Shown: piece after piece, positions 987-52,669 of the stretch
Layout: every line of letters begins with the position of its first letter
How positions within the stretch are numbered: the stretch's first letter is position 1
The notes under the pieces: model-generated
What the model was told of the DNA's origin: nothing
Database searches by the model: none
What the model saw: only the letters and a program-made list of their open reading frames with translations
Assembly: GCA_016868355.1 (NCBI GenBank)
Contig: VGHB01000013.1
Span: 5,985 to 69,984 of the forward strand
Origin: Betaproteobacteria bacterium
GTDB taxonomy: Bacteria; Pseudomonadota; Gammaproteobacteria; Burkholderiales; Burkholderiaceae_C
DNA length: 64,000 nucleotides
Direction of reading: 5' to 3'
Made by a program: the position numbers and the translations under genes

Positions 987-1691
987 CTACCCGATCAGCA
1001 TACGCCCCAAGCAAACCAAACCCGCCGGCGCCTCCAGCCAAGCCTCGATCTGAACCGGACCCTCACCCACCGAAATGGCCTGGCCCTTGACCATCCCCAT
1101 ACAAGCCAAGGCCTGCGACAACGGTGTGGCCTGCGGGTGCTGCAAGCGCAGGGCCTGCAAGCGCAGACCCGAGGGCGGCATCTGAGCCACCGGGTGCACC
1201 GCACCCCACTGAATCAAGGTGGGCAGCGCGCCTCCAAACAGGCGATGACCATCGTCGCGAACGGTGATCTGCCACTCCAGCAAGCCTGCTGCGGTCATGC
1301 GCGAAGCACTCAACACAGGCCCGCGCTCGATACCCAGTGGGTACAAAGCGGCGCGCGCAGCTTGCACATCCGAGCTGCGGGCCACCCAATGGCACAGCTG
1401 CGGGCCTTCGTTTGCCAGGCGCTTGATCAGCGCGGGGTCATCCAAGTCAAACCATCGCTGCAAGCCGGGTGCACGTGTGGGCGTGGCACCCGGGTCAACC
1501 GCAATGATTTCCAGGTATGCCCTCTCGAAGCCCGGGCCATCCACCCGCAACAATCGGTTGTGGGTCCCCATCAGCGGGTGTGCCCCACCGGGGCCAGGTG
1601 TCACCCCAAGCACAGACTCACACCACCGCACGCCCTCATCCAAACTCGAAGCCGCCACCACCAGGTGGTCCAACACCGCCGTCAGCGGCAT
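987..1691 (-). CDS. VOC / glyoxalase-like domain protein
   Basis: 234-aa ORF. The N-terminus MPLTAVLDHLVVAASSLDEGVRWCESVLGV.. resembles glyoxalase-like (VOC fold) proteins. It overlaps the stop of the upstream gene by 10 nt (1682-1691), which suggests co-transcription. Confidence 0.55.
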   Translation of the reverse strand: MPLTAVLDHLVVAASSLDEGVRWCESVLGVTPGPGGAHPLMGTHNRLLRVDGPGFERAYLEIIAVDPGATPTRAPGLQRWFDLDDPALIKRLANEGPQLCHWVARSSDVQAARAALYPLGIERGPVLSASRMTAAGLLEWQITVRDDGHRLFGGALPTLIQWGAVHPVAQMPPSGLRLQALRLQHPQATPLSQALACMGMVKGQAISVGEGPVQIEAWLEAPAGLVCLGRMLIG

Positions 1692-4156
1692 GTTCCATCC
1701 CCCTGTTGTTCACCCACCTTCAAGCCCAGGTGGCTGGCCGACACCCGCTCGTTGCCCGGAATATTTCGGTGGATGGGCCGGTTGAGCAGCTCGGCTTGGC
1801 CCTGCTTGCCGCGCAGCACCAGGGCACTCGTGCCTCCGCCATCGAGGTTGATGCCCTCCGTGGCGCCCAATGCCTTGAGCCAGGCGGCCAGGTCATGCAG
1901 CGTGGCGCCCAAGCTGTATTCGAACTGCCGACCGTCCACCACCAGAAGCCACATCCAGCGGCCGTCAGCCGAAACACCCACCGCGGTGCGCGGATGCACC
2001 GAGGGCACCAGCACCCTGGGCGCCACATCGTGCCCCCCGCGCAAGACGATGTCGAATCCCCCGACGGCATTGCGCACACCCGTGGATGGGAAGGGCGGGG
2101 CTTGGATGCGCACCGCTCCGTCGTTCATCATCAACAGGGCCGGGTACTGCTTGCTCGGGCCCGACACCGGTCGTCCCTGGCTCACCTGAAAGCCGGCCAC
2201 TTCCATCAACAGTCCCTCTTGATCGACCACAGGCCCAAACGGTGCGGCATTGATGGCCAGGTGCAGCTGGTGTTCGCGCAGGAAGGTGCTGGTCTTGAGC
2301 CCGATGGTTTCGGGCGTGTGACGGCCGGGCGGCGCCATCGGGGCATCGCCCCATGTGGCCGGCGGTGTGGCCAACCACTGCAGGCAAGGCGTCTGCAGGT
2401 CAATTCGGGCCAGGTGTAAAACAGCTTGGCGCGGCTCCAACACCTGCAGTTCGGCCACGGCCACACCCGCAAAGCGGGGCTTCCAACTGGGGGACAGGAC
2501 CGGCCCAGCTTCAGCACCCAGGGCACCGGGGCGCAAGGTGGCGCGCATCGACTCGCGTCGATCAACCAACAGCTCCACCTCGGCCCAGTCCCCATCCACC
2601 GTCAGGGCCACCGGCCCGCCCTGAAGGTGATGCAGCCCTTGGATGTCCTGCCAGCCGGCGTTGGGCAAGCGGCGGCCCACCACTCGATACTGCCCAGCTG
2701 GCAGATGGTCAGCAGACCACAGCGCTGGTGCTGTAGACCCGTGGGGCTTGGGCGTTGGCGCAGCACGGCGCACCAGGGGCCAAGACCCCGGGCGCCAACC
2801 CACGGCAAAGCGCGGCGAATGGGCAGGCCCACGTTGCCGATACCAGGCCTGCAGTTCCTGCGCATAGAGGTCCAACACGCCACGGCTGAACCACAGTACA
2901 TGGCCCGCCTGCCCAAGGCTGTCGACCAACTCCATCGACCGCCTGAGTTGATCCCACGAAGAGTCAGGACCATCGCCGACGATGCGGATGCCGGCCACCA
3001 GCTCATCGGGCCGATAGGCGCCCCGCGCCTGCACCGCGGTGGTTTGCTCGCGCCAGGTTTTTTCGAACGCCGCGTAGCTCATGCGGTAGGCCTGGGGGAT
3101 GACCTCATCCCAATGCGGCACCACACGCTGGGCGGCTTCCTGGCGCACCGGCAAGCCGCTCAAGCGGTCGGCATCGGACCATGCCGTCCATCGTGGCCAA
3201 TCCAACAAGTAGTTCTCCCAGCTCCAGGGATAAACCGCAGGGCTGAGCGACACCACCAGACCAGGCCGGCGGGCTCTGACCTCTTGAACAAACCAGCGGG
3301 CGTATTCGTCAACCTTGGAGGCTCGCCAGCGCATCCAAGCCGGGTCTCGATGGTCTGCTGGCGGCTGTGCGCCGAGGTGCTCAGCCGCATAAACGCGGCG
3401 TGTGTAATCGTCATAGCCCATCGTCACGTGGGGCCACACGATGCGGTCGTCCAACTGAATGCCGTCGAGGTCATAGCGGTCGATGGCTTCCAGCACCAGG
3501 TCCAGCAACAGCGCTCGCGACTGCGGATGCAAGGGGTTGAGCCAGACGAACCCGTTGGGGGCCACCTCGCGGCCCTGCAGGTCACGGCTAAGCCACTCGG
3601 GTTTGCTCTGGCGCAAGTGGTTCATCGTGGACTGATGCGCGGCCATGAAGCCGTACTCAAACCAGGCTATGGCCAGCAAGCCCTGGCGGTGGGCCTCGGT
3701 TACCGCTTCATGCAACAGGTCTCGAGGTGCTTGTGCGCGGGTGTGCGGGGAATCGGCCGGGTCTTGCTCGCGGCCTGCAGGCCGCTGCGAAACGCCGATG
3801 GCCCGGCGCAGCACCTCCGAAGGGAACTGGGTGTAGCCGTTCTTCCAGGCCTCGATGTAGACGGTGTTCAAGCCAATCTCGCGCAGCCGCTGCATGGTGC
3901 GCGCCGTGTGCTCGGGGCTGGCCAGGGCGTCGTTGGCGGTGGTGGTGAGCCAGGTGCCACGCACTTGTGGGCGGCTGGGTGCTTCGGGCCTTGCAGCCTG
4001 CTGTTCCAGCGTACCTGGCGCTTGCTCTTGGCTCTGCGCAAAGCCCCACCCGCACGCCAACACGCACAGCAGCTTCAAAGCGGCCATTTGGATGCAAAGC
4101 CGACGTCCGGTCTTTGGTCCGCGAAGGCTCGCGCGACGGTTTGAAGGGTTCATCAT
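1682..4156 (-). CDS. Fusion protein: N-terminal GHL10 (glycosyl hydrolase-like 10, DUF187/YngK-type) domain plus C-terminal NAGPA-type phosphodiester glycosidase domain; exported
   Basis: 824-aa ORF. Signal-like MAALKLLCVLACGWGFAQS gives an alternative start near 4087. N-terminal half: RGTWLTT..GLNTVYIEAWKNGYTQFPS..LLAIAWFEYGF..LNPLHP..DLDGIQLDD (GHL10-like). C-terminal 250 aa: HPRTAVGVSADGRWMWLLVVDGRQ..GINLDGGGTSALVL (hallmark of the phosphodiester glycosidase / NAGPA family). Confidence 0.8.
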   Translation of the reverse strand: MMNPSNRRASLRGPKTGRRLCIQMAALKLLCVLACGWGFAQSQEQAPGTLEQQAARPEAPSRPQVRGTWLTTTANDALASPEHTARTMQRLREIGLNTVYIEAWKNGYTQFPSEVLRRAIGVSQRPAGREQDPADSPHTRAQAPRDLLHEAVTEAHRQGLLAIAWFEYGFMAAHQSTMNHLRQSKPEWLSRDLQGREVAPNGFVWLNPLHPQSRALLLDLVLEAIDRYDLDGIQLDDRIVWPHVTMGYDDYTRRVYAAEHLGAQPPADHRDPAWMRWRASKVDEYARWFVQEVRARRPGLVVSLSPAVYPWSWENYLLDWPRWTAWSDADRLSGLPVRQEAAQRVVPHWDEVIPQAYRMSYAAFEKTWREQTTAVQARGAYRPDELVAGIRIVGDGPDSSWDQLRRSMELVDSLGQAGHVLWFSRGVLDLYAQELQAWYRQRGPAHSPRFAVGWRPGSWPLVRRAAPTPKPHGSTAPALWSADHLPAGQYRVVGRRLPNAGWQDIQGLHHLQGGPVALTVDGDWAEVELLVDRRESMRATLRPGALGAEAGPVLSPSWKPRFAGVAVAELQVLEPRQAVLHLARIDLQTPCLQWLATPPATWGDAPMAPPGRHTPETIGLKTSTFLREHQLHLAINAAPFGPVVDQEGLLMEVAGFQVSQGRPVSGPSKQYPALLMMNDGAVRIQAPPFPSTGVRNAVGGFDIVLRGGHDVAPRVLVPSVHPRTAVGVSADGRWMWLLVVDGRQFEYSLGATLHDLAAWLKALGATEGINLDGGGTSALVLRGKQGQAELLNRPIHRNIPGNERVSASHLGLKVGEQQGDGTCR

Positions 4157-4162
4157 TAAGCT

Positions 4163-7724: not shown

Positions 7725-8660
7725 TTAGCGCGGGATTTCCGCAAAGTCTGCGGCTCGAATAGCCGCGCACCGATGGGCGGCCAGGTTCAAACGCGAGACG
7801 GCAATACCAGCAGGCAGGCTTGCCGCCAAGGACGACTGCAGCAGGGGGTGGAGTTCGAAGGCGCCGCCGGCCAGCCACACGGGACGGGGACCGAACTGCC
7901 GAAACAACAGAGTGGCCAAGCGCCCCAGCTCTAAGCCAGCACTCTGAAGGATTCCCCAGGCCAACGTGTCTTGATCGGCTACGGCCGCCACGGCCAGCGC
8001 CAAGCGTCCCACGTCACCCCGCGAGGCCAGATGCATAAAGCGCCGGGTATCTTCCCAGCGTGAGCCGCCAACAGCCTGGAACAAGGCCTGGGCCAAAAGG
8101 GACCCCTGGCAAAAGCCCGGGTCTTCATCCTCTGCGCGCCAAATCGCCTTGAGGGCCTGACAGGCAATCCAGTAGCCACTGCCATCATCGCCCAAGGTCT
8201 CACCGCGGCCCCCAACCCGATACAGCCGGTCTTGTTCATCCAAGTAGGTGGCGATGCACCCGGTACCGGCGTACACCAAATAGCCGCTGCCCTTTGCAAG
8301 GCTTACCCGGTGGGCCAACTCCACATCGTTGTAGAGCCGCAGAGCACCCGGGGCCAGGGCCAGGCAATGCTCCATGTGGGCCTGCAATGGCTCGCCGGCA
8401 TGCCCATCAAAGCCGGTGACGCCAGCCCAAGCCAAAACCGTTGCAGCCCCCCCAGCCACTGCCGCCGGCGCATGCGAGGCCTTGACCACTTCGCGCAGCG
8501 CCGACAAGGCTTGGGCAATGTGGTCCCGCCCGGCTTCGGTGTGAACCTGCTGCCCACTGAAACTGGGCGCTATGCCCTCTTGCATGACCTGCCCCCGGGC
8601 ATCGGCCAATGCCCAGCGGCACTGCGTACCGCCGACATCCAGGCCCAAGCCGAGGTGCAA
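7725..8660 (-). CDS. BadF/BadG/BcrA/BcrD-type ATPase; predicted N-acetyl-hexosamine (GlcNAc/MurNAc/ManNAc) kinase, paralog 1
   Basis: 311 aa. (TTG)HLGLGLDVGGTQCRWALAD phosphate-1 motif; GYLVYAGTGCIA; GGRGETLGDDGSGYWIA. Clear paralog of the 31543..32484 gene. Confidence 0.75.
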   Translation of the reverse strand: MHLGLGLDVGGTQCRWALADARGQVMQEGIAPSFSGQQVHTEAGRDHIAQALSALREVVKASHAPAAVAGGAATVLAWAGVTGFDGHAGEPLQAHMEHCLALAPGALRLYNDVELAHRVSLAKGSGYLVYAGTGCIATYLDEQDRLYRVGGRGETLGDDGSGYWIACQALKAIWRAEDEDPGFCQGSLLAQALFQAVGGSRWEDTRRFMHLASRGDVGRLALAVAAVADQDTLAWGILQSAGLELGRLATLLFRQFGPRPVWLAGGAFELHPLLQSSLAASLPAGIAVSRLNLAAHRCAAIRAADFAEIPR

Positions 8661-8679: not shown

Positions 8680-11505
8680 TTACAGTTTGGCGCGCAAAGC
8701 TAGGAAATACTGTCTTCCGTTTTGATGCCAATAACCGGGCGCGTTCACATTCAGATAGTAGGTGTGACGAATCGGATCGTTGAGGTTGTTGCCATCAAAG
8801 TGCAGGCTGATGTCCTTGGTGATGCGATAACCCAGCGACATCGACAGGCTGCCGGCACCCGCATAGCGGTGCTGGCCGTTGTACTGCGTGATCACGCCAG
8901 CGGCATTGACCAGGGGCGTGAGCGTGCCATTTCCGACAAAGCCGATGGCGTAGTCGGAGCGATAGTTCCAAGCCAGACTGGCTGTGAGCTTGCTGTCTTC
9001 GTAGAAGCCCCGCATGTTGTAGGTGCGGGTTGAGGTACCCAGCAGCGGTGCACCATCGGCGTCTTTCGAGTCCACATAGGTGCCGTTCACCCCCAAGCCG
9101 AAGCCGCCACCAAAAGGCAGTTCCATGGCGGCTTCAGCCCCCTTGAGCTTGCCGGAAACCCCGATGCGAGAGCTCACCAGATAGGTCGTTACTTTGTTCT
9201 GCGCAATATTGAAGTAATCGATTGACGAGGTACCCGTCTTGACATAATTCTCCAGGCTTTGCGTGAACACCCCGGCAGACACATAGGCACGCGGGGCAAA
9301 GTAACGGGCCCAAGACAGGTCGACGTTATTGGACAGGATGGGCTTGAGGTTGGGGTTGCCGCTGGACCCGGTCAACAGAGTGTCGTTCAGGCTGACCGCA
9401 CCGGCGAGCTCGTTGTAATTGGGGCGGCCCAGACTGCGCGAGATGCCCACCCGAATATCATTCTGCCGATCAAGCTTCCACCGCAGGTTGAAACTGGGGA
9501 GCACGGCGTTGTTTTCAGTGGTGTTCAGGCGAGGCAGGTACGTGGCAATGCGCGAACCCACGATGGCACCGGGCACCGCACAGGGTTTCAAGACGGCGCA
9601 CTGCCCCAAGGCTTGGTACGACAAAGAATCAACTTCTGTCTTGGCCAAGCGAACCCCAAAATTGCCGCTCTTGCTGGCGTCAAGCTCAAACTCGCCCATT
9701 GCGTAGGTGGCCGTGTTCTGTTCCTTGATCTTGTAGCCACTAGTCAGTACGTCGTTCAGGCCCGGGGTCCAGTTGATGTACTTGTCGGTAAAGGCCTTCA
9801 TCTGTGCCATGTCATAGCGGAAGATGTCGCGCGGGAAGTTTCCGCTAGCCCCGTTAAACCAATTGGCCGGGTAGGACGTAGCGGGCACCGGCACGGCCGA
9901 TGCGGGCACCACGGTGGACTTGACCACCGAGCCACCGGTGATCAGGGTGAAGGGAAAGTCAGGCGATGACGAGGGAATCGGGCCTGCTGCATTGTCCTGA
10001 GCATTCCAGCGCGGGTTGACTACCGCGTAGCTGCGGTCGTGCGTCGAGCGGCGCGCACCGAACTTGATGTTGGTGAGGAAGCCAGTGGCCATCTTGTAGT
10101 CGCCATCCAAGTGGAAGTAGGACTCTTTGTCCAGGGCCTTCACTGCTGCGCCCTGGTTGCTCAGCAGTGAAAAGTTGGCGACGTTTCGCAGGTTTATGGG
10201 TTTGCCATCGGCGCCATTGATGGTGTACTGCGCCGGAGCATCAGGCGTCTGACTGAACTTGACGGTGGATGGACTGACCAGGCCATAGACCAAGCTGGGC
10301 TGCGACGCTGTGGTCCCACTGCCTTCTGTGTAGCCGGCGCGGCCCCGAATGCTGAAGGCCGAAGTCAGGTTGTACTTGGCGTCCAAGTCCCAGAATGAGC
10401 TCGTGGACTGGGCCCCCTGACGGTTGAAGTGGTCGAACTGCAGACCCACCACATTGGAAGTGGCACCGGTGGGGCGGGTGATGGTGGCCGAGGTCACCAC
10501 ATCACCGGTGATGACAGGGTCCCGAATCAGGTAGCTCGCATTGTTGACCAAGCCGTATGGCAAGGCATAGGCTGAGCTGTTGTAGTTGTCAGCGTTGAGT
10601 TCAGCGCGGAACAAAGAGGCGTTGACCTCGAGGGCTTTGCTGGGTTTGAACTGCAAGCCCAAGTAGCCACCGCTGCGCTGACGCACGCCTTCGAACATAG
10701 CCGAGTTCAAGCTGCCGGTCATGCGCTTGCCGGCCAAGTCGGGGTTACCGGAAGCTGTGGCCTGCGCCACAGTAATCACGTTGTAGCCAAAAATCTCTTG
10801 GCCATCGCGCCGCAGGTGACGATTTTCCTTGAAGACCTGCACCAGCAAGCCCATGGTGTTGTCGCCGTTCTTCCAGTTGATCAGGCCACTGACCTGCGGG
10901 TCGGTCTTGTTGGCTAAGGCGGCATGCACCATGCCCAAAGAGACTTCTCCACTGAGCGCTTGCCGGAAGCTCAGTGGCTTGCGCATGATGATATCCACGC
11001 TGCCGGAAATACCGCCTTCGGTAATGTCTGCACGGCTGCTCTTGTAGACGATGGTCTGACCGATGATCTGGGAAGGCATGAGACCGAAGCCCACGCTGCG
11101 GCCGCTACCGGCCTGATCGCCGACGTGCCAGTCACCCGAACTCAGCGCATGCCCGTTGACCGTCACGAGGTTGAGGTTGGGACTGGTGCCACGAATGGCC
11201 ACTCGCTCAGCTTCATCCATGGCCAATGCACCACCGTACTGCACGTTAACCCCGGGAAGGCGCGACAGCGCATCGGCAATGTTCTTGTCAGGCATCTTGC
11301 CGATGTCTTCGGCCGTGATGACATCCACATTGGTATCAGCGGCTCGTTTGGTGACCAGCGACTGTTCGATGGAGGCCCGGATCCCGGAGACTTCAACCCG
11401 TTGGGGCGCGTCCTTGGGTGCGGCCTGCTGGGCTTGCGCACCGGCAGCCAGGCTGAACAGCAGCGTTGATACCGCAACGGCGATGGGCTCTTGGCGGAAT
11501 TTCAT
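8680..11505 (-). CDS. TonB-dependent receptor (carbohydrate-scavenging type)
   Basis: The ATG at 11505 is preceded by GGAGA 8 nt upstream. Signal MKFRQEPIAVAVSTLLFSLAAGAQA. Plug region VEVSGIRASIEQSLVTKRAADTNVDVITAEDIGKMPDKNIADALSRLPGVNV. C-terminal ..QYFLALRAKL beta-barrel end. Confidence 0.9.
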   Translation of the reverse strand: MKFRQEPIAVAVSTLLFSLAAGAQAQQAAPKDAPQRVEVSGIRASIEQSLVTKRAADTNVDVITAEDIGKMPDKNIADALSRLPGVNVQYGGALAMDEAERVAIRGTSPNLNLVTVNGHALSSGDWHVGDQAGSGRSVGFGLMPSQIIGQTIVYKSSRADITEGGISGSVDIIMRKPLSFRQALSGEVSLGMVHAALANKTDPQVSGLINWKNGDNTMGLLVQVFKENRHLRRDGQEIFGYNVITVAQATASGNPDLAGKRMTGSLNSAMFEGVRQRSGGYLGLQFKPSKALEVNASLFRAELNADNYNSSAYALPYGLVNNASYLIRDPVITGDVVTSATITRPTGATSNVVGLQFDHFNRQGAQSTSSFWDLDAKYNLTSAFSIRGRAGYTEGSGTTASQPSLVYGLVSPSTVKFSQTPDAPAQYTINGADGKPINLRNVANFSLLSNQGAAVKALDKESYFHLDGDYKMATGFLTNIKFGARRSTHDRSYAVVNPRWNAQDNAAGPIPSSSPDFPFTLITGGSVVKSTVVPASAVPVPATSYPANWFNGASGNFPRDIFRYDMAQMKAFTDKYINWTPGLNDVLTSGYKIKEQNTATYAMGEFELDASKSGNFGVRLAKTEVDSLSYQALGQCAVLKPCAVPGAIVGSRIATYLPRLNTTENNAVLPSFNLRWKLDRQNDIRVGISRSLGRPNYNELAGAVSLNDTLLTGSSGNPNLKPILSNNVDLSWARYFAPRAYVSAGVFTQSLENYVKTGTSSIDYFNIAQNKVTTYLVSSRIGVSGKLKGAEAAMELPFGGGFGLGVNGTYVDSKDADGAPLLGTSTRTYNMRGFYEDSKLTASLAWNYRSDYAIGFVGNGTLTPLVNAAGVITQYNGQHRYAGAGSLSMSLGYRITKDISLHFDGNNLNDPIRHTYYLNVNAPGYWHQNGRQYFLALRAKL

Positions 11506-11582: not shown

Positions 11583-11588
11583 TTTTCC

Positions 11589-13096: not shown

Positions 13097-13102
13097 AGAA
13101 CA

Positions 13103-14447: not shown

Positions 14448-14484
14448 AAGCCACCGCCGGTCTTGAACTGCAGCAGGGGGCGCC

Positions 14485-39058: not shown

Positions 39059-41929
39059 ATGAAACTCAAGCCGATCGCACAAACACTGGCTGCCCTCAGC
39101 CTCATCTCGCCCGTTCTGGCGCAACAGGCAGCCGAACAACGGGTGGAGATCACCGGCTCGAGCATCAAACGCCTGGCCAGCGAAGGCGCCCTGCCCGTAC
39201 AGGTCATCACCCGTGCCGAGATCGAACAGCAGGGCCTGACCAGCACCGAGCAGGTGATCCTGTGGTTGTCCACCAACGGCAACGGTTTAGATAACCTGGC
39301 CTCCAACGCCGACGTGGTGGGCGGTGCCCAACGGGGCAACAACGGTGCCACCAGCGCCAACCTGCGCGGCCAAGGCAGCAACGCCACCTTGATTTTGTTG
39401 AACGGCCGGCGTGTGGCCGCGCACGGTCTGAACGGCGGCGTGGTCGACCTGAACCAGGTTCCAATAGCCGCCATCCAGCGCATTGAAGTGCTCAAGGACG
39501 GCGCCAGTTCGATCTACGGTACCGACGCCATCGGCGGCGTGATCAACTTCATCCTGCGCACCGACTACCGCGGGGCCTCGATTCAGGGCACCAGCGACGT
39601 CACGCAGGCCGGTGGTGGCAACATCTACCGTGCTTCGGTGGTCGCCGGCACCGGTGACCTCAGCCGAGATGGCTACAACCTGATGGCGGTTTTGGCGCGG
39701 CGCGAGCACCAGGCCCTGCGTGGCGACCAACGCGACTTTGTCAACACCTTTCAGCCCAACCGAGGCTTGAGCGTGGACACCCGCGGCACACCGTTTGCCA
39801 CCATCTTCCCCTTGGCCGGCACCCTATTCCCCGCCGCCACATCTTTCCCCTTCGTACCCGGCAGCACCACGGTGCGGGCCTCGGGTGGACTGAATGTGCT
39901 GGACCTGCCGGGTGCCGAAGGATGCGGCTCGATCACCGGCCAAGCACCCTACGACGCCCTGTTGTGGAACGTGCCCACGGCCGCCCTGGCTTGCGCCTGG
40001 GACACTGGCCGCGCGGCGGTGCTGCAACAACCCATCAGCGGCACCAACCTGGTGGCACGCGCCACCTTCAAGTTGGGTGAGCACCAGTTGGCCGCCGAGT
40101 TCACCGGCAGCCAAACCGAGTCGGCCAAGCGTTTTTCGAACGTACAGTTGACGCCCAACACCACAACTCAACAGCTTCGCTTCCCCCGCAACGCTGCCTC
40201 GCAGGCAGCCTATGACGCGGTCTTCAATCGCTTGCGGTCGGCCTTCCCGAGCCAGATCACCGAGGCGCAGCGCGGCCAGTCGCTTGCCTACCGCTGGCGT
40301 TGCATGGAGTGCGGCCCGCGTGAACTGGAAACCGACACCACCACACAACGTTGGGCTGTCACCATGGACGGCCCACTGGGCAAAGGGTGGGACTACCGTG
40401 CAGGCCTGATCCAAGCCACCAGCCAAGCCAAGTCCAAGCTCGGCTCGGGCTACTACTACCGCGGCACCACAGCCACCGGCGCATCCGATGGCGGCCCGGG
40501 CATCATCCCGGCGCTGAACAGCGGGCGCATCAACATCTTCCTGTTCCCCGGTCAGACCCAAAGCGCCGACGGCCTTGCGGCCCTGCAAGAAGCCTCGGCG
40601 GCTGGCGTGGTGCTGTACGGCGGCAAGTTCACCATGCAACAAGCCGACTTCACGGCTTCGGGCCCGGTGGCCAAGTTACCCGCCGGCGAGGTCATGGCCG
40701 CACTGGGGGCCGATGTGCGGCGGGAAGAGTACCGTTTCAATGGCGACGAACGCGACCTGCCTGCCCAGCGCATCATCGTTGCCGCGCCCTTTGACCAGAC
40801 CAACGTGCTTTTGGGCGCCAAACGTGAGGTCAAGGCCCTCTACGGCGAATTGCTGGTGCCCATCACCAAGCAACTGGAAACCACGTTGTCGGCTCGGCGC
40901 GACGACTACACCGGTTTTGGTGTCACCACCAATCCCAAGGTGTCGGCCCGCTGGAAGCCTTTTCAACAGTTCCTGGGCCGTGGCTCCTACAGCACCGGGT
41001 TCCGGGTGCCCACCTTCAACCAACTCTACAACGGCTCGGCCGAGTCACTGTTCACCGGCACCACGCTGGTGGACCCCAAGACCTGCCCCGGCGGTCGCCC
41101 GAACACCACCGATCCTGGCTGCGCGTTCATTGACCGTGCCGCCAACATCATCAACGGTGGCAAGCCTGACCTCGGCCCCGAAGAGGCCAAGATGGGTTCC
41201 GTGGGCTTCATCGTCGAGCCCAGCGCCAATCTGAGCATCGGACTGGACTGGTGGTCCATCCGCCGCGAGGGCACGATCCAAATCCTGTCACTGACCCAGC
41301 TGATCGACAACTACAAGCTTTTCCCCGAGCGCTTCATTCGGGATGGGGCCGGCAAGATCATCGCGGTCGACCAACGCTGGATCAACGCCGGCGAGACCGA
41401 AACCTCGGGTGTTGAGGTGACCCTGCGCAGTGGCTTCATGGCGATGGACGCACGCTGGACCGCCGGGTTGGACGGCACCTATTTGCTCAAGAAGCGTTCG
41501 CGCGTGGTGCCCTCTGCGGCCTGGAGCGCCAGCGAAGTCGGCCAATTCAGCTTTGCCGGTGACTTGGGGCTGCGTTGGAAGCACAGCGCCTTCCTCACCC
41601 GCAGCAAGGGCTCATGGGTCAGCACCATTTCGCAGGTCTTCCGCAGCGGCTACAACGACCAGGTGCTGCCCGGCGTGGCCGCTGGCGCCGTCACGCCGCC
41701 CGATTGGAAGAGCCGTGTGGACAGCTACACCACCTACAACATGGCGCTGACCTACACCGGCATCAAGAACCTGCGGGTGACCGGCCTGATCAAGAATGTG
41801 TTCGACCGTGACCCGCCGTTTGCCATCACCTATGACAGCAACTTCGGCTCGGGCAGCTCGTGGGAGCCCCGTGTTACAGACCCGCGCGGCCGTGCCTTCG
41901 TGGTCAGCTTCGATTACAGGTTCCGCTGA
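39059..41929 (+). CDS. TonB-dependent receptor
   Basis: 956 aa. GGAG upstream of the ATG. Signal MKLKPIAQTLAALSLISPVLAQ. Plug VEITGSSIKRLASEGALPVQVITRAEIEQQGLTS .. ANLRGQGSNATLILLNGRR. C-terminal RAFVVSFDYRFR. Confidence 0.9.
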   Translation: MKLKPIAQTLAALSLISPVLAQQAAEQRVEITGSSIKRLASEGALPVQVITRAEIEQQGLTSTEQVILWLSTNGNGLDNLASNADVVGGAQRGNNGATSANLRGQGSNATLILLNGRRVAAHGLNGGVVDLNQVPIAAIQRIEVLKDGASSIYGTDAIGGVINFILRTDYRGASIQGTSDVTQAGGGNIYRASVVAGTGDLSRDGYNLMAVLARREHQALRGDQRDFVNTFQPNRGLSVDTRGTPFATIFPLAGTLFPAATSFPFVPGSTTVRASGGLNVLDLPGAEGCGSITGQAPYDALLWNVPTAALACAWDTGRAAVLQQPISGTNLVARATFKLGEHQLAAEFTGSQTESAKRFSNVQLTPNTTTQQLRFPRNAASQAAYDAVFNRLRSAFPSQITEAQRGQSLAYRWRCMECGPRELETDTTTQRWAVTMDGPLGKGWDYRAGLIQATSQAKSKLGSGYYYRGTTATGASDGGPGIIPALNSGRINIFLFPGQTQSADGLAALQEASAAGVVLYGGKFTMQQADFTASGPVAKLPAGEVMAALGADVRREEYRFNGDERDLPAQRIIVAAPFDQTNVLLGAKREVKALYGELLVPITKQLETTLSARRDDYTGFGVTTNPKVSARWKPFQQFLGRGSYSTGFRVPTFNQLYNGSAESLFTGTTLVDPKTCPGGRPNTTDPGCAFIDRAANIINGGKPDLGPEEAKMGSVGFIVEPSANLSIGLDWWSIRREGTIQILSLTQLIDNYKLFPERFIRDGAGKIIAVDQRWINAGETETSGVEVTLRSGFMAMDARWTAGLDGTYLLKKRSRVVPSAAWSASEVGQFSFAGDLGLRWKHSAFLTRSKGSWVSTISQVFRSGYNDQVLPGVAAGAVTPPDWKSRVDSYTTYNMALTYTGIKNLRVTGLIKNVFDRDPPFAITYDSNFGSGSSWEPRVTDPRGRAFVVSFDYRFR

Positions 41930-41948
41930 GATCGGTTGAGCCGCCAAG

Positions 41949-42902: not shown

Positions 42903-42917
42903 TCACCGCCTGCAGCC

Positions 42918-44737: not shown

Positions 44738-46354
44738 CTACCGTTGACCGGCGGCCACCCAATCGGCCACGGCATCCAAGACCGGGCGGCCACGCCGCGG
44801 CGCTTCGTCGTGGTTGATGATGGCAGCCATCACCCACAGCCTTCCCTGCGCATCCTCGACATAACCCGCCAGGGCCACCGCGTTTCGCAAGGTTCCGGGC
44901 TTGAGCCGCGCGCGGGCACGGGCCGCGGTGTCCGTCATCCGGTTGCGCAAGGATCCATCGACCCCGGCAATCGGCAGGCTCATCAGCAATTCGCTGGCAT
45001 GCAGCTGGGTACTCGCCGCTCGCAGCACCATCGCCAACTGGCGCGGCGTGATGCGCTCACTGCGCGAAAGGCCTGAACCGTTGTCCAGCACCAAGCCCTC
45101 GGTGGCAATGCCCTGTTGTTCAAACCACCGCCGAACCGAAAGTTCAGCCCATTCGCGGGTGCTGCGTGGCGGCAGCGCGGCACCGGCCTGGCCCGCGCGG
45201 CGCTCTTCTTCCAAGCCCGTCAAAAGGTACAGGACCCGCGTGGCCACGTTGTCCGACGTCTTGTTCAAGGGCCGCAGCCATTCGCCCCAGGGGCGGGCTT
45301 CGCGCCGCGCCAACAATCGCGTGGGCTGAGGCGCGGCTGCCGAAGCTGAGGCGGCCACGGGCGCTGAGGCCTGCCGGCTGAGGGTACCCGCGCCTGCGGC
45401 CTCGCCCGCGGCCTCATAGGCAAATTCGCCTCGCTGGGCCTCTCGCACACGGCCGCTCCACTGCCCACCCAACTCGGTCCACACCCAGCGCAGCTGCGCC
45501 TGTGCTTGGCGGTTACGCTCCATCAACTGCAGCGGCTGGCGTTGGGTGCAATCGGCCGGAAAGCGGCCCTGCAGTTGAACCACCACCGTCCCATCGGTCT
45601 GCTCCTGGGTGCTTGGGGTGGCCCAGCCCGCCCTGCTCCAATCGCGACAGGCCACCGTACCCGGTTGGTGCAAGCTCAAGCGGTTGTCCACACGCACGCC
45701 CGGCAGTTCCGGCCTGAGGCGGGCCCGAACCTCGCTGCGGTCGGACACCAATTCCAAGACCTGCAAATTGCCCCCCAACTGCAGGGCATCGGGAATCACG
45801 TTGTAAGGGAACTCGGGCGACTCATCAAACGGGGGGATGCCGATGTCCAGGCGCGCGGGGTTGAACAGATGCCGGTCCAGTACGATGTCGCCATCGATGT
45901 GACGAATGCCCGCTTCTCGCAACTCCAGCATCAAGGCCCACAACTGGGCCAAGCCCAGTTCCAGATCGGCACCACCGCGCAACACCAGGTCACCGCGCAG
46001 ATGGCCTGCTTCGACCGGTGCGGCGGTGCGCAGTTCGGTGTAGCCCCGCAAATTGGGACCCACGCGGTCCAGGGCCACGGCACTGGTAACCACCTTCATC
46101 GCCGAAGCCGGCTGCATGGGACGGTCGGCCTGGTGCAGCAGGCCAACCGCGGAGCCCGCGCGCGCAGGCCTATCCACCGGCAATACCGCCACCGCCAGGG
46201 TCGAGGCATCCAAACCGGCGCGCTCCAGGGCTGCCCGAACTGGACCCGGTAGGGCCTGAGCTGGCTCAGGCGCGTGGGCGCAGCCGCCCAAAACCCAGGC
46301 CACGCTGAAAGCCAAGAGAGGTGGGGCCCACCAGCGCCGACGGCGCGGGTGCAT
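44738..46354 (-). CDS. dacB: D-alanyl-D-alanine carboxypeptidase/endopeptidase, PBP4 family (peptidase S13), probable lipoprotein
   Basis: The ATG at 46354 gives MHPRRRRWWAPPLLAFSVAWVLGGC (lipobox). SxxK in PASAMKVVTSAVAL. Ends with KPGTLRNAVALAGYV. The track ORF to 46699 reads through the upstream repeat region and is rejected. Confidence 0.8.
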   Translation of the reverse strand: MHPRRRRWWAPPLLAFSVAWVLGGCAHAPEPAQALPGPVRAALERAGLDASTLAVAVLPVDRPARAGSAVGLLHQADRPMQPASAMKVVTSAVALDRVGPNLRGYTELRTAAPVEAGHLRGDLVLRGGADLELGLAQLWALMLELREAGIRHIDGDIVLDRHLFNPARLDIGIPPFDESPEFPYNVIPDALQLGGNLQVLELVSDRSEVRARLRPELPGVRVDNRLSLHQPGTVACRDWSRAGWATPSTQEQTDGTVVVQLQGRFPADCTQRQPLQLMERNRQAQAQLRWVWTELGGQWSGRVREAQRGEFAYEAAGEAAGAGTLSRQASAPVAASASAAAPQPTRLLARREARPWGEWLRPLNKTSDNVATRVLYLLTGLEEERRAGQAGAALPPRSTREWAELSVRRWFEQQGIATEGLVLDNGSGLSRSERITPRQLAMVLRAASTQLHASELLMSLPIAGVDGSLRNRMTDTAARARARLKPGTLRNAVALAGYVEDAQGRLWVMAAIINHDEAPRRGRPVLDAVADWVAAGQR

Positions 46355-46457: not shown

Positions 46458-46501
46458 GGTAATGGGGCGGTGATGGGGCGGTAATGGGGCGGTAATGGGG
46501 C
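46458..46501. repeat. Four tandem 11-bp units GGTAATGGGGC / GGTGATGGGGC / GGTAATGGGGC / GGTAATGGGGC
   Basis: Read directly from the sequence. Located in the divergent intergenic region between dacB (start 46354, minus) and the amiD-like gene (start 46584, plus). Confidence 0.9.
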
Positions 46502-46583
46502 GCATTTCAACTTTTGAACTGCAGCGCCGGCATCAGGGCTGCAACGGGTGTTCGACCTTGATGGCCAGGCGCACAATTGGTGC

Positions 46584-49057: not shown

Positions 49058-49062
49058 GGACC

Positions 49063-50023: not shown

Positions 50024-51271
50024 TCAAACCGCCTCGAGGCTGAACGACAGGCCTTGCAACATCGCCGGCGTGTCCTGGCCGTTCATCTGCGCGGCCAAGA
50101 GTTGCGCGCTGCCGGTGGCAAGGGTGAAGCCCAGGGCGCCTTGGCCCAGGTTCAACCACAGGCCCGGCACGCCGCTGGGGCCAATGATGGGCGCGCCGCT
50201 GGGCGTGGCGGGCCGCAAACCCGCCCAGGGTTGCGCATGCGCGTAGTCGCCCGCTTGGGGCATATCGGTTTGCGCCACGCGCAGCAGACTCTGCAAACGT
50301 CCTTGGTCAATGGCCTCGTTTTGGCCCACCAAGTCCACCATCGCAGCCACGCGCAGGCGAGACCCAATACGCGCGTACAGCACCTTGCGTTCGAAGTCCG
50401 TTATGCTGGCGCGCGGCGCGGTGTGCTGCGCTTCAATGGGTGCATCCAAGCTGTAACCCTTGAGGGGGTATAGCGGCAGCTTCACCCCGAGGGGCAAGGC
50501 CAGTGCACGGCTGGCAATGCCCGCGGCCAGCACCACCGCGTCGGCGCCGTAGGCCTGCGCGCGGCCCTGCACCGACACGCGCGGGCCATCAGATCGAAGC
50601 GCCAGCACCGTGTCCAACACCAGGCCCTGAAAGTTCGGGTGGCCCTGCAGCCGATCCATCAGGCTCACACAGAAGGCGTGACAGTCGGCCACTGCCTCGT
50701 CTTCGCTGTAGATGCCGCCTGCAATCCTAGGCCCCAGTTGGGCCAGTGCCGGCTCTTGCGCCATGCACTGTTCGCGGCTCCACTCCTGCTGGCTGCCGTC
50801 TATGGATGCGGCCGCGCGGCGCTGGGATGCGCTGCTGCGGTACAGCACCAGCTTGCCCGCCTGCTCCCATGCGAAGTGGCTCACCGCGTGGCGGTCCATG
50901 AGTTCATGCAGACACTGCCGGCTGAATTGACCCAAGCGGGCCAGGCGCGAAGCCGTGGCCCGGTTGTCCGCGCCGTTACAGAGCGCCAAAAAACGCCCCA
51001 GCCAAGACCACTGCACCGGGTCAGCTTGGGGCCGCCAGCGCAGCGGGCCATCCGGGTCCAAGAGCCAGCGCAAGGCTTTTGCAGGCACGCCCGCATCGGC
51101 CAAGGGTGCCACGTAGCGGTAGCTCAGCTGCCCCCCGTTTCGAAGGCTGGTGCCTTGACCCACGCCGCGGGCATCCAGCAGGCTAACCCGCCAGCCCGAT
51201 TCGGCCAAGGCCCAGGCCGTGGTGATGCCCACCACGCCAGCGCCCAGGACCATGGCTTGTCCTTGCATCAT
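50024..51271 (-). CDS. dadA: FAD-dependent D-amino-acid dehydrogenase-like oxidoreductase
   Basis: The N-terminus MMQGQAMVLGAGVVGITTAWALAESGWRVSLLDARGVGQGTSLRNGGQL is DadA/DAO-like. The start is ambiguous (51271, 51268 or 51253); the track ORF to 51364 is rejected. Confidence 0.7.
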   Translation of the reverse strand: MMQGQAMVLGAGVVGITTAWALAESGWRVSLLDARGVGQGTSLRNGGQLSYRYVAPLADAGVPAKALRWLLDPDGPLRWRPQADPVQWSWLGRFLALCNGADNRATASRLARLGQFSRQCLHELMDRHAVSHFAWEQAGKLVLYRSSASQRRAAASIDGSQQEWSREQCMAQEPALAQLGPRIAGGIYSEDEAVADCHAFCVSLMDRLQGHPNFQGLVLDTVLALRSDGPRVSVQGRAQAYGADAVVLAAGIASRALALPLGVKLPLYPLKGYSLDAPIEAQHTAPRASITDFERKVLYARIGSRLRVAAMVDLVGQNEAIDQGRLQSLLRVAQTDMPQAGDYAHAQPWAGLRPATPSGAPIIGPSGVPGLWLNLGQGALGFTLATGSAQLLAAQMNGQDTPAMLQGLSFSLEAV

Positions 51272-51439: not shown

Positions 51440-51685
51440 ACCATGGCTGACCTGGGCGGCTGCGGGCGCGCCAGGTGGAGCGCAGTGCGGTCGGCCAAGC
51501 GTTCCTGCCGCAGGCACGCGCGATGATCCAGATCGAGCTGATTGGCGTGAGCAACTTCACGGCCACGCGCATCGCGACGGGCCATCAACGGGCCAGGCAG
51601 CGGTGAAGAACTGGCTCGCTTCATTGCTGCCGAATCGGCACGGTGGGGCCGCGTCATCCGCGACCGCAAGATCAGTACCGAATAG
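51440..51685 (+). pseudogene. Decayed 3' remnant of a Bug/TctC-family (tripartite tricarboxylate transporter) periplasmic binding-protein gene
   Basis: Own translation. One frame ends ..GEELARFIAAESARWGRVIRDRKISTE-stop (51602-51685), a typical Bug C-terminus. Another frame upstream reads W-AAAG-AP-GG.. and ..DDPDRADWREQL.., resembling the Bug W-x4-AP-x-GTP and DPEVR..L blocks. Frameshifts and in-frame stops (for example 51548-51550) separate them. There is room for only ~140 codons, versus ~325 for an intact gene. Confidence 0.4.
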
Positions 51686-51697
51686 CGGCCGCGCGGC

Positions 51698-52669
51698 TCA
51701 GCCCCCGGCCAAGCGCCGATTGGGCTGAGCCAGATAGAACCATTCCTGGCGCGCCGCAGCAGCGGCGTTGGGGAACATGATGCGGCCCTGACTCGGGGCC
51801 CGCACCTCCTGACCGTCGCGGCGCACGCCGATCAGCTCACCGGCCTCGAAGGCATCAAAGCTCTGCCAATCGCGGGTAAAGCGGTCCTCGGCATGGTGCT
51901 TGTCCACCACCTCATGAAGGGTGAGGGTTTCAATCTCAGCCGCCGGCGCTGGCGGCTCTTCATCGGTCAGCCCAAAGTGCGCCAGGGTGCGCCGCACGGC
52001 CCGGTAGGCCACCTCGGGCGCATGAGGGTCGCGATGCTGACCACACTCCAGCGTCAACGCGCGCCCACCGATAGAGCGCATGTACTCGGTGGTCCCCACA
52101 CCGTAGTTGGGGTTGAGGTCCAGCCCTGCGGCCCGCTCGGCCGCTTCCTCGCGCCGGCGCGCCACACCGCGCACATAGGTGCCCAGCCAGCCATCCACCA
52201 CCCGGTCCACGCCCAAGACCTGTACCCAGGCCTCTTCGTCAGCGGCGTGGCGGTAGGGCTCGGTGCCGCCACGGTTGTTGCGCGGGCCCAGCATGGCAAA
52301 CGGCTTGCCCTGTGCATTGAAGGAATGCAAGTCCAACAAGACCTCGTGCTGTCCCATCAGCGGGCACAGCCAGTTGGCCACATGGTCCTCAAATTCGCGG
52401 GGCACCGCAGCTGGGCCCAAAGCGCGGTTGAGGTTGCGGTCTCCGTTTCGTGTGCCCTGTTTGAACGCCAGGCAATTGCTCACCGGCACCAAGGTCAATT
52501 GGCCCCTTGAAATCACCACCTCATCACGATCGAGTTCTTCGATCAGGCGGCGCAAGGCGTGCGTACCACAGACCTCATTGCCGTGAACGGCTGCCGTGAC
52601 CAAGAGCTTCACACCCGGTGCATAGCCGGTGTAGCTGAGAGACTTAAAAGGGTTCAGGGGCTGACTCAT
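51698..52669 (-). CDS. Succinylglutamate desuccinylase/aspartoacylase-family (M14-like zinc) hydrolase
   Basis: 323 aa. MSQPLNPFKSLSYTGYAPGVKLLVTAAVHGNEVCGTHALRRLIEEL carries the HxxE zinc block of the AstE/AspA family. Confidence 0.65.
   Translation of the reverse strand: MSQPLNPFKSLSYTGYAPGVKLLVTAAVHGNEVCGTHALRRLIEELDRDEVVISRGQLTLVPVSNCLAFKQGTRNGDRNLNRALGPAAVPREFEDHVANWLCPLMGQHEVLLDLHSFNAQGKPFAMLGPRNNRGGTEPYRHAADEEAWVQVLGVDRVVDGWLGTYVRGVARRREEAAERAAGLDLNPNYGVGTTEYMRSIGGRALTLECGQHRDPHAPEVAYRAVRRTLAHFGLTDEEPPAPAAEIETLTLHEVVDKHHAEDRFTRDWQSFDAFEAGELIGVRRDGQEVRAPSQGRIMFPNAAAAARQEWFYLAQPNRRLAGG

Follow-up and report, generated by a model that had tools for sequence, protein, structure and literature searches.

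How do peptidoglycan fragments above the porin limit cross the outer membrane of Gram-negative bacteria? To our knowledge, their route has not been established. Peptidoglycan occurs everywhere in soils and waters and constitutes a large store of organic carbon and nitrogen there. The question is raised by a 64-kb stretch of the betaproteobacterial contig VGHB01000013.1 (the window, i.e., the whole stretch of DNA analyzed here), in which genes encoding three TonB-dependent receptors (TBDR1, TBDR2, and TBDR3) lie among genes for murein hydrolases, importers, and amino-sugar enzymes. A preliminary description had assigned about 40 genes between positions 987 and 52669 to a single system, organized around the three receptors, for the import and full catabolism of exogenous peptidoglycan.

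Our analysis suggests, with a probability of about two in three (0.68), that a multi-operon island of ~53 kb, from a PhoX gene at the left edge to an AstE-like gene ending at 52669, scavenges bacterial cell-wall debris. Its right part (~30-52.7 kb) makes a convincing peptidoglycan-fragment catabolic unit anchored on TBDR3. None of the protein families is new; the novelty lies in an uncharacterized receptor family whose linkage to murein and D-amino-acid catabolism is conserved, as well as in the recurrent association with a second module. Import and catabolism of exogenous peptidoglycan are supported for the right part by TBDR3 synteny and a verrucomicrobial counterpart, whereas the unity of the block, its completeness, and a role for all three receptors had been overstated.

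Conserved linkage of TBDR3 with peptidoglycan genes

TBDR3 (39059..41929, forward strand), which carries Plug and barrel domains and a Sec signal, is the conserved anchor receptor of the locus. A search using one genome per species gave 351 relatives, and all window proteins were compared by tblastn with the best 80 of the 351 TBDR3 loci (53-96% identical), counting neighbors within 10 kb; many of these 80 contigs were short. At least one peptidoglycan-related neighbor was found in 64 of the 80 loci, at least two in 51, and at least four in 35. The most frequent neighbor was the LD-carboxypeptidase LdcA (36 loci), followed by the AmpG-like permease (33), PBP4 (31), the dipeptidase DdpX in fourth place (29), and the AstE-like protein (28), and then by Bla1 (21), GHL10b (20), Bla2 and MurQ (17 each), AmiD (15), and NagX (13). 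The genera with such loci include Undibacterium, Massilia, Rhodoferax, Inhella, Leptothrix, and Aquabacterium, together with many Rubrivivax-like metagenome-assembled genomes (MAGs).

Each of these neighbor genes occurs in one or a few copies per genome, and we estimate that far less than 1% of random 20-kb segments would hold one; therefore, the linkage to TBDR3 is far beyond chance. Gene order and strand vary widely across the loci, and these many different arrangements argue for selection on linkage rather than a single inherited arrangement. Beyond Proteobacteria, a receptor of 49% identity in Lacunisphaera (Verrucomicrobia) lies beside genes for MurQ, GHL10, an AmpG-like protein, AnmK, NagZ, Amidase_2, an M20 peptidase, and an MR_MLE epimerase. 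Synteny had been proposed as a check of whether the block is conserved as a unit: the TBDR3-peptidoglycan linkage is conserved, in shuffled orders, and the whole block is not one unit, since its left module is separable.

The commonest partners of TBDR3 are stem-peptide enzymes and the AmpG-like permease, which points to muropeptides or stem peptides as the likeliest cargo. TBDR3 is therefore a candidate outer-membrane importer of these compounds, as judged from its gene neighborhood. A disaccharide-tetrapeptide (~940 Da) exceeds the usual porin limit, so that a TonB-dependent route is sensible.

Peptidoglycan-fragment genes of the right part

Open reading frames were selected from their length, their G+C by codon position, and the genes called on identical contigs; all selected frames were scanned against Pfam and most of them against NCBIfam. 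Export signals, lipoboxes, and twin-arginine (Tat) motifs were read directly from the N-termini, and transcription units were inferred from gene orientation and overlaps of 1-4 bp.

TBDR3 belongs to unit 6 (36180-44655, forward), which begins with a membrane protein containing two Gate domains (SpmA/B-like, 36180-37478) that is conserved beside TBDR3. The next gene encodes Bla2 (37518-38771), a penicillin-binding-fold protein of 417 aa with SxxK (121), SxN (166), and KTG (353) motifs, no signal peptide, and no sequence relative in the PDB (E up to 1); it is a possible cytoplasmic DD- or LD-peptidase for imported stem peptides. TBDR3 is followed by a LysR regulator (41949-42902) without a match to the AmpR model, a D-Ala-D-Ala dipeptidase of the DdpX/VanX type (42918-43577; DdpX model 136 bits, below the cut-off of 176), and LdcA (43531-44655), which has S66 domains, a twin-arginine export signal, and a score of 181 bits against the LdcA equivalog cut-off of 378.

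On the reverse strand, unit 5 (36014-30095) encodes NagA (34863-36014; TIGR00221 254 bits, cut-off 226), an AmpG-like protein of the major facilitator superfamily (MFS, 33593-34885), a NagX-like membrane acetyltransferase (32466-33596; 173 bits against the NagX cut-off of 480), BadF-type kinase 2 (31543-32484), and Bla1 (30095-31546). The AmpG-like protein scored 167 bits with TIGR00901 (cut-off 350) and 101-110 bits with the AmpG equivalogs (cut-offs 656-756), placing it in a related but distinct subfamily. Both BadF kinases of the window belong to the BadF/NAGK family, with 61-64 bits against the NagK equivalog cut-off of 370 and a weak match to the solved MurK (E 5e-6 to 5e-5). Bla1 is an AmpH/R61-like serine hydrolase with a Tat signal, a lipobox, and SxxK, YxN, and HxG motifs; its best model was AmpH (50 bits), and class C beta-lactamase models gave 25-39 bits against cut-offs above 400.

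Unit 7 (46354-44738, reverse) consists of a PBP4-type DD-carboxypeptidase/endopeptidase lipoprotein (44738..46354; Pfam S13, TIGR00666 170 bits against a cut-off of 108, lipobox). It diverges from unit 8 (46584-49959, forward), which encodes an AmiD-type amidase lipoprotein (46584-47429; Amidase_2 and PG_binding_1 domains, lipobox), the DigH-family lipoprotein GHL10b (47426-49057; Pfam GHL10 191 bits, lipobox), and the etherase MurQ (49063-49959; NF003915 365 bits, cut-off 168). GHL10b is 31% identical to Escherichia coli DigH over 376 aa (E 7e-55), an enzyme that degrades, and is specific for, peptide-free ("denuded") peptidoglycan glycans (PMC12288456). The gene order of unit 8 reads as peptide stripping, hydrolysis of the bare glycan, and de-etherification of N-acetylmuramic acid (MurNAc)-6-P. 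In Ideonella and Aquabacterium this order is kept as well, and the loci also encode PBP4, a BadF kinase, and an Opp-type importer. Two single-gene reverse units complete the right part: a DadA-family D-amino-acid dehydrogenase (unit 9, 51253-50024, gene 50024..51253; NF001933 395 bits against a cut-off of 383, Pfam DAO) and a cytoplasmic zinc amidohydrolase of the AstE/AspA family (unit 10, 52669-51698, gene 51698..52669; Pfam PF24827), which is a candidate hydrolase of stem peptides or N-acyl-amino acids.

Peptidoglycan-metabolism genes make up ~1% of a typical genome by our estimate, so that a run of 39 adjacent genes with at least 15 of them goes far beyond what chance would give. The presence of DdpX, DadA, NagB-II, and MurQ and the export signal of LdcA support the view that the enzymes of the locus would serve catabolism rather than recycling. 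No GH3, AnmK, or Mur-ligase domain was detected by domain scans in any window gene, and tblastn with the Lacunisphaera AnmK, NagZ, and AmpD-like proteins found nothing in the window or in the 80 proteobacterial TBDR3 loci, in which Mpl was not searched. The lack of these three from the 80 loci is in keeping with a route through hydrolases and kinases, not with one through anhydro fragments. AnmK, NagZ, and AmpD are usually housekeeping genes located elsewhere. The earlier observation that the window lacks anmK, nagZ, mpl, and a cytoplasmic ampD was accurate, but the use of non-anhydro fragments deduced from it was weakly founded, as the window covers 64 kb only and the Lacunisphaera locus has AnmK and NagZ.

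The left module

The left part (1-30 kb) includes two divergent operons. Unit 1 (13096 to 1, reverse) starts with a GntR/HutC-type regulator with a UTRA domain (12311-13096) and NanE, an N-acetylmannosamine (ManNAc)-6-P 2-epimerase (11589-12311). These are followed by TBDR1 (8680..11505), a receptor of the Xanthomonas/Caulobacter carbohydrate type (TIGR01782 518 bits, cut-off 310), and by the cytoplasmic BadF/NagK-type sugar kinase 1 (7725..8585; Pfam PF01869, NagK_SO3507 61 bits, below the cut-off). The next three genes encode an Opp/Dpp-type ATP-binding cassette (ABC) importer, consisting of a family-5 binding protein with a Tat signal (6068-7678), an OppB-like permease (5017-6084), and an OppC-like permease resembling DdpC (4163-5020; 285 bits). 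The preliminary description recognized this importer and overlooked that no genes for its ATPase (OppD/F) occur in the window; the importer is either non-functional or uses ATPases encoded elsewhere. Its orthologues (59-72% identity) lie, with OppD/F, in the PBP4-Opp and BadF-AmiD-GHL10-MurQ core of Ideonella and Aquabacterium. The place of OppD/F in those two genera is occupied here by the next gene of unit 1.

This gene (1682..4156) encodes an exported protein in which a GHL10 glycosidase is fused to a C-terminal NAGPA domain, a phosphodiester glycosidase (165 and 91 bits in Pfam, respectively), with a signal/lipobox at the N-terminus. The GHL10 protein had been correctly noticed and its NAGPA domain missed. 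PDB sequence matches were to Cwp19 and human NAGPA; the Clostridioides difficile Cwp19, which is matched by the GHL10 domain of the fusion and not by GHL10b, is a peptidoglycan-cleaving autolysin, and this domain is just 23% identical to E. coli DigH. The operon ends with a Glyoxalase_3-domain protein (987..1691; PF13468, E 1.3e-37) and the PhoX alkaline phosphatase (1..906; PF05787, E 1.4e-47), of which the window edge leaves the N-terminal 302 aa; the full length is 725 aa on the source contigs, with a Tat/lipobox-like signal.

Unit 2 (13170-24143, forward) encodes a CUT1 ABC importer (binding protein, 13170-14447; permeases, 14485-15351 and 15348-16205), a cytoplasmic GH38-like hydrolase (16202-18892), a DUF4127 protein (18889-20373), a flavin adenine dinucleotide (FAD) oxidoreductase (PF12831, 20370-21956), a MalK/UgpC-like ATPase (22007-23095), and a NagB-II-like SIS deaminase (23106-24143; 268 bits, cut-off 430). 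The GH38-like protein still has its N-terminal catalytic domain and its middle domain, and it is similar to GH38 of streptococci; no informative solved relative of the FAD oxidoreductase was found by sequence in the PDB. The DUF4127 gene stands between the GH38-like and PF12831 genes in all four cases (the window, Paucibacter, Chitinimonas, and Pseudoduganella). Its AlphaFold model is confident (pLDDT 90.4, pTM 0.91) and its alignment has ~100 invariant residues; the PDB sequence search was empty, and Foldseek of the model against the PDB gave a best E of 2.5e-3 with TM of at most 0.29. Searches of the open-access literature found nothing on the function of DUF4127 or of bacterial NAGPA.

Unit 3 (27259-24113, reverse) encodes an agmatinase-like arginase-family protein (26288-27259; above the NF002564 cut-off), a secreted Amidase_2 of the PGRP fold with a Sec signal (25599-26291), and a sodium:solute symporter (24113-25585). 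The agmatinase-like gene is also kept beside two other TBDR3 loci (L047 and L082), and we know of no obvious role for a ureohydrolase in cell-wall catabolism.

Comparison with relatives indicates that the left module is a conserved unit of its own. The gene order of unit 2 is identical in Paucibacter, Chitinimonas, and Pseudoduganella at 44-69% identity, and the GntR-NanE pair adjoins the CUT1/GH38 module in all three. Paucibacter sp. JuS9 has one unit with the FAD oxidoreductase, DUF4127, GH38, two permeases, ROK, and the CUT1 binding protein, and a divergent unit with GntR, NanE, a TBDR2-type receptor, a Bla1-type protein, DUF5009, an esterase, an N-acetylglucosamine (GlcNAc) 2-epimerase, and PfkB. 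In Pseudoduganella aquatica, a trio of arginase-family, TBDR2-type, and Bla1-type genes (L095) lies ~0.8 Mb from the module of GntR-NanE and CUT1-GH38-DUF4127-FAD oxidoreductase (L098), which adjoins a gene for a 1507-residue protein combining NAGPA, purple-acid-phosphatase, and metallophosphatase domains.

The most extensive counterpart is a ~45 kb supercluster of Chitinimonas sp. BJYL2 (JANZKW010000001.1, 860579-905937), formed by two abutting loci on one contig (L096 and L097), with orthologues of ~19 window genes and three receptors. It comprises genes for an AmpG-like protein, a D-lactate-dehydrogenase-like FAD/Fe-S protein, Amidase_2, and LysR; a TBDR2-type receptor, NAGPA, PfkB, a GlcNAc 2-epimerase, DUF5009, GHL10, and two TBDR1-type receptors; NanE and GntR, then the whole CUT1-GH38-DUF4127-FAD oxidoreductase-MalK operon; and the AstE-like protein, LdcA, DdpX, LysR, a family-5 binding protein, and Bla2. 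The two TBDR1-type genes (41% and 53% identity) lie beside NanE-GntR and the operon running from GHL10 to NAGPA. The D-lactate-dehydrogenase-like protein and the GlcNAc 2-epimerase with PfkB have no counterpart in the window.

The left module is thus at times detached from the peptidoglycan core and at times rejoined to it in another order, which is evidence of functional coupling and does not by itself show a shared substrate. Its constant elements are NAGPA, a phosphatase, which is PhoX here and part of a fusion in Pseudoduganella, and a path that leads from ManNAc to GlcNAc-6-P (NanE and a kinase in the window; an epimerase and PfkB elsewhere). This content points, with low confidence, to a phosphodiester-linked ManNAc/GlcNAc wall-associated glycan as the substrate rather than murein proper. 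The linkage unit by which teichoic acids and other secondary polymers are attached to MurNAc is one candidate.

Variation of TBDR2 among relatives

TBDR2 (27519..30074, forward) forms unit 4 (27519-30074) by itself and has a Plug domain and a Sec signal; its barrel domain is seen in the Pfam annotation of orthologues, which have both Plug and barrel. A metagenome scan with TBDR2 gave three loci. Its orthologues neighbor NanE and Bla1 in Paucibacter, NAGPA and GHL10 in Chitinimonas, where they also adjoin Amidase_2 and an AmpG-like gene, and a GHL10-NAGPA gene in L092, where a 66%-identity orthologue of the fusion directly follows the receptor. The arginase-family/TBDR2/Bla1 trio recurs in Pseudoduganella, as described above.

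In relatives whose TBDR3 is 84-96% identical, the stretch from the agmatinase-like to the AstE-like gene has the same order, and TBDR2 varies within it: the receptor is present in L011 and L091; in L012 it is absent, with the agmatinase-like and Bla1 genes 170 bp apart; and in L016 both TBDR2 and Bla1 are absent, with the agmatinase-like and BadF2 genes 40 bp apart. This polymorphism, together with the lowest G+C of the window in the TBDR2 region (0.576), suggests recent gain or loss.

Layout, borders, and regulatory features

Freshwater metagenome contigs of 50-88 kb (from JGI 3300021093, other JGI sets, and ENA assemblies) match the window, whose G+C is 0.58-0.68; the closest relatives that bear a name are Rubrivivax-like MAGs and uncultured "Betaproteobacteria". 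There are 38 genes within 987-52669 and, with PhoX, 39 genes in the ~53 kb island, arranged in ~10 inferred transcription units. The right border assigned earlier (52669) is supported, since unrelated genes follow the AstE-like gene here and in a 68%-identity relative (L010). The left border (987) was set too short: the operon runs into PhoX (1-906), and the truncated PhoX gene directly downstream of Glyoxalase_3 indicates that the island begins left of 987. The right flank (52773-63148) encodes an FAD-monooxygenase/OYE fusion, MarR, an enoyl-CoA hydratase, an acyl-CoA dehydrogenase, an AMP-dependent ligase, an FAA hydrolase, and a PaaZ-like aldehyde dehydrogenase-MaoC fusion, which look like an unrelated aromatic or acyl-CoA degradation cluster. 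A 44-codon frame (51551-51685), suspected to be a Bug/TctC binding-protein C-terminus, had no Pfam match and was dropped.

The island encodes at least eight exported hydrolases along with five transporter systems, and its regulators are of the GntR and LysR types. The original inventory was confirmed: Pfam and NCBIfam agree on the three receptors at 8680-11505 (reverse), 27519-30074, and 39059-41929 (both forward), and, together with the N-terminal signals, on the exported murein hydrolases, with the exception of Bla2, which has no signal peptide. The five inner-membrane importers (the AmpG-like MFS, the sodium:solute symporter, OppBC with its family-5 binding protein, CUT1, and the two-Gate-domain protein) and the cytoplasmic enzymes (two BadF kinases, MurQ, NagA, the NagB-II-like SIS protein, NanE, DdpX/VanX, and DadA) were likewise present. 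The list was accurate and left out six genes, encoding the GH38-like, DUF4127, FAD oxidoreductase, agmatinase-like, NagX-like, and Glyoxalase_3 proteins. Lipoboxes were found in AmiD, PBP4, GHL10b, and Bla1, twin-arginine motifs in LdcA, GHL10b, Bla1, and both binding proteins, and Sec signals in the three receptors and the small Amidase_2. No export signal was seen at the N-termini of the kinases, MurQ, NagA, NagB-II, NanE, DdpX, and DadA, or of the AstE-like, GH38-like, DUF4127, FAD oxidoreductase, and Bla2 proteins.

A single operator common to all intergenic regions was sought, and only local features were found. A perfect 7-1-7 palindrome, CAAATGG-A-CCATTTG, at 13101-13115 lies between the divergent GntR and CUT1 operons and was not found upstream of other operons; it is a candidate operator of the HutC/NagR-type regulator. 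In the divergent PBP4-AmiD promoter region, an 11-bp tandem repeat (GGTAATGGGGC, 4.1 copies, 94% match, 46458-46502) may be a regulator-binding array or a phase-variable spacer. An Rfam scan of the window found no non-coding RNA.

Evidence against the proposed reading and alternative explanations

Several observations weigh against a cell-wall scavenging island. The gene functions at the locus are predictions from sequence, and most of the exported enzymes are homologous to housekeeping remodeling enzymes. One GHL10 family member has been reported to be active on starch (PMC9967864), so that GHL10 membership is no proof of a murein substrate. The likeness of TBDR3 to solved receptors is confined to the plug, so that its cargo is not readable from homology, and the AmiD-GHL10-MurQ-Opp-PBP4 core has no receptor within 10 kb in Ideonella and Aquabacterium. 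Two alpha- and gammaproteobacterial TBDR3 homologues of ~57% identity (L040 and L060) lie among unrelated genes, namely PucC, UbiA, and PhzF in a Steroidobacteraceae locus and SDR, MFS, and PQQ dehydrogenase genes in a Thermaurantiacus (Sphingomonadales) locus; the peptidoglycan association is therefore not uniform below ~58% identity. Other Steroidobacteraceae loci retain LdcA, a symporter, and an acyltransferase fused to a transglycosylase-like domain. TBDR2 is dispensable, being absent in relatives with TBDR3 92% and 84% identical; the three receptors around which the locus was thought to be organized are thus a feature of the lineage and not of the system. The cytoplasmic funnel, described earlier as complete, has gaps: Pfam scans found no beta-N-acetylglucosaminidase (GH3 or GH20) in the window, which also has no OppD/F, D-lactate dehydrogenase, glutamate racemase, or enzymes for D-Glu and diaminopimelate (DAP) catabolism.

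The single theme proposed for ~40 genes also has to give way, since 1-30 kb is separable, lying apart from the core in Pseudoduganella, and the core occurs without the left part in Ideonella and Aquabacterium. On these grounds, one could regard the locus as two or more independent, adjacent systems, a peptidoglycan module (~30-52.7 kb) and an unrelated amino-sugar glycan module (1-30 kb) for capsule, exopolysaccharide, glycoprotein glycans, or teichoic-acid-like polymers, sharing only the GlcNAc-6-P end-pathway. The distance of ~0.8 Mb in Pseudoduganella and the solitary core of the other two genera agree with this explanation, as do the separate GntR and LysR regulators, the difference in G+C (~0.60 left, ~0.66 right), the carbohydrate-type TIGR01782 family of TBDR1, and the presence of GH38, NanE, NAGPA, and PhoX, which have no known role in murein breakdown. 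However, the modules are rejoined in another order in Chitinimonas, where TBDR2 orthologues stand beside Amidase_2 and AmpG-like genes; the left module carries peptidoglycan-type genes (a GHL10 domain, the secreted Amidase_2, and AmpH-like Bla1); and its Opp and BadF proteins are orthologues of the Ideonella peptidoglycan core. We take two independent systems to be unlikely, while giving this explanation serious weight.

Housekeeping machinery for the cell's own murein is an improbable explanation, under which the receptors would recapture self-lost fragments or be unrelated neighbors. The AmpG-like, LdcA, PBP4, AmiD, DigH-like, and MurQ proteins are indeed homologous to turnover and recycling proteins of E. 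coli, but LdcA is Tat-exported instead of cytoplasmic, the AmpG-like protein falls far below the AmpG cut-offs, and AnmK, NagZ, cytoplasmic AmpD, and Mpl are not in the window (nor are the first three in the 80 loci). Catabolic DdpX, DadA, and NagB-II, the accessory nature of the locus, which is reshuffled among relatives, and the conserved receptor linkage also speak against self-recycling. A generic regulon for GlcNAc or chitin oligosaccharides of the Shewanella, Xanthomonas, or Caulobacter type would account for the TIGR01782 receptor, the BadF-type NagK-like kinase, the NagB-II-like, NagA, and NagX-like proteins, and GntR, and GlcNAc is known to be taken up in a TonB-dependent manner by Caulobacter and Xanthomonas (PMC13046382, PMC4173781). 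Yet none of the matches to NagK, NagB-II, and NagX reaches its equivalog cut-off, and MurQ, the two muramoyl-L-alanine amidases, PBP4, LdcA, DdpX, and DadA would be useless for chitin. No GH18 or GH19 chitinase, GH20 or GH3 hexosaminidase, or NagP-type permease was found in the window, where the sole MFS is the AmpG-like protein; a chitin-utilization locus was rejected for this reason and for the murein-specific enzymes present, and we consider the wider GlcNAc regulon very unlikely. A beta-lactam sensing or resistance island, as in AmpR-AmpC circuits, was likewise rejected and is scarcely credible: the two beta-lactamase-fold genes, the LysR regulator, and the AmpG-like permease recall such circuits, but Bla1 resembles AmpH best and is far below the class C cut-offs, Bla2 has no signal peptide, the LysR protein does not match AmpR, and most of the 39 genes encode transporters and sugar or peptide catabolic enzymes.

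Proposed model and implications

Scavenging of cell-wall debris by the island could proceed as follows. Soluble fragments too large for porins, such as the ~940 Da disaccharide-tetrapeptide, would enter through the TonB-dependent receptors, among which TBDR3 is the conserved one. In the periplasm, the two amidases, whose family and export signals are evident, would remove stem peptides; PBP4 and the exported LD-carboxypeptidase would trim cross-links and terminal D-Ala, perhaps assisted by the AmpH-like hydrolase, and the DigH-type GHL10 lipoprotein would cleave the denuded glycan. Candidates for import across the inner membrane are the AmpG-like MFS, the Opp-type importer, the sodium symporter, the Gate-domain protein, and the CUT1 ABC system. 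In the cytoplasm, the BadF-type kinases would, from their family assignment, produce MurNAc-6-P and GlcNAc-6-P, which MurQ, NagA, and NagB-II would convert to fructose-6-P, with D-lactate freed at the MurQ step. DdpX and DadA would turn D-Ala-D-Ala into pyruvate, and the remaining peptide is probably handled by the AstE-like amidohydrolase and the cytoplasmic penicillin-binding-fold protein. The left third would be a co-travelling second module, most likely for a phosphodiester-linked ManNAc/GlcNAc wall-associated glycan, feeding the same NagA/NagB-II funnel.

A bolder proposal, which we put forward tentatively and hold to be somewhat less than an even chance, is that TBDR3 defines a widespread family of TonB-dependent transporters dedicated to peptidoglycan fragments (muropeptides or stem peptides), in Burkholderiales and with counterparts in Verrucomicrobia. 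These transporters would form the outer-membrane entrance of a "peptidoglycan utilisation locus" through which bacterial necromass becomes food for Gram-negative heterotrophs. The same proposal includes a new pathway, made up of GHL10-NAGPA, PhoX, NanE, GH38, DUF4127, and the FAD oxidoreductase, for detaching and consuming phosphodiester-anchored wall glycopolymers (e.g., the ManNAc-GlcNAc-1-P linkage unit of teichoic acids), in which DUF4127 would be an enzyme with a fold lacking a solved relative.

A receptor family wired to murein-degrading and D-amino-acid-catabolizing genes would be a concrete answer to the question of outer-membrane crossing, and its genes could be used as markers for necromass turnover in metagenomes and metatranscriptomes. 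If the reading is true, it also provides candidate transporters for muropeptide-based "Trojan horse" compounds and roles for orphan families, including GHL10 subfamilies, bacterial NAGPA, DUF4127, and NagX-like, Bla2-type, and AstE-like proteins. The isolate Chitinimonas sp. BJYL2 could serve as an experimental model.

Comparison with known systems

TonB-dependent uptake of GlcNAc is established in Caulobacter (PMC13046382), and indirect genetic evidence for uptake of peptidoglycan degradation products exists for NixC of Xanthomonas (PMC4173781); muropeptides are not listed in a 2024 review of TonB-dependent substrates (PMC11658791). In the open-access literature, where absence is not proof, no TonB-dependent peptidoglycan utilization system was found beyond NixC, in agreement with the earlier statement that none has been characterized in Proteobacteria.

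The closest systems are the carbohydrate utilization loci for GlcNAc (Xanthomonas NixA-D, NagP, NagK, NagB-II, NagA, and NagX; the Caulobacter NagA receptor), with which the window shares the TIGR01782 subfamily of TBDR1 as well as NagA, a NagB-II-like deaminase, a BadF-type kinase, and a NagX-like protein. Like such a locus, the window has receptor genes, an adjacent inner-membrane transporter, exported enzymes, and local regulators. The differences are that TBDR2 and TBDR3 are not TIGR01782 members, that an AmpG-like permease takes the place of NagP, and that the enzymes are murein-specific (MurQ, amidases, PBP4, LdcA, DdpX, DadA, and the DigH-type GHL10), whereas the known loci encode chitinases, hexosaminidases, and N-glycan glycosidases.

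Canonical recycling (AmpG-NagZ-AmpD-LdcA-AnmK-MurQ-Mpl in E. coli; AmgK-MurU in Pseudomonas and Caulobacter) has homologues of the AmpG-like, LdcA, MurQ, NagA, AmiD, PBP4, and DigH proteins. In contrast to the island, it needs no outer-membrane receptor, processes 1,6-anhydro fragments via AnmK, NagZ, and AmpD, and returns the peptide via Mpl; LdcA of the window is periplasmic, and the end-points would be catabolic (fructose-6-P, pyruvate, and ammonia). Tannerella forsythia, with MurT-MurK-MurQ and AmpG, uses exogenous MurNAc or muropeptides through a BadF-family kinase and MurQ, as the island would. Unlike that system, the window has no phosphotransferase-system-type (MurT-type) transporter domain and has receptors and a full peptide branch, and its purpose appears to be catabolism instead of rescue from auxotrophy. 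The ddp operon of E. coli (ddpXABCDF), for the use of D-Ala-D-Ala in starvation, similarly combines a DdpX-type dipeptidase with Dpp/Opp-type permeases; in the window, however, the dipeptidase lies ~37 kb from the permeases, the ATPase genes are missing, and the wall-degrading locus is much larger. Compared with the SusC/SusD loci of Bacteroidota, the window has no SusD, its receptors are not of the SusC/RagA type (TIGR04056 26 bits), and the layout is a proteobacterial one of multiple operons, but the concept is the same, with receptor-mediated import, surface or periplasmic depolymerases, and cytoplasmic catabolism of one polymer.

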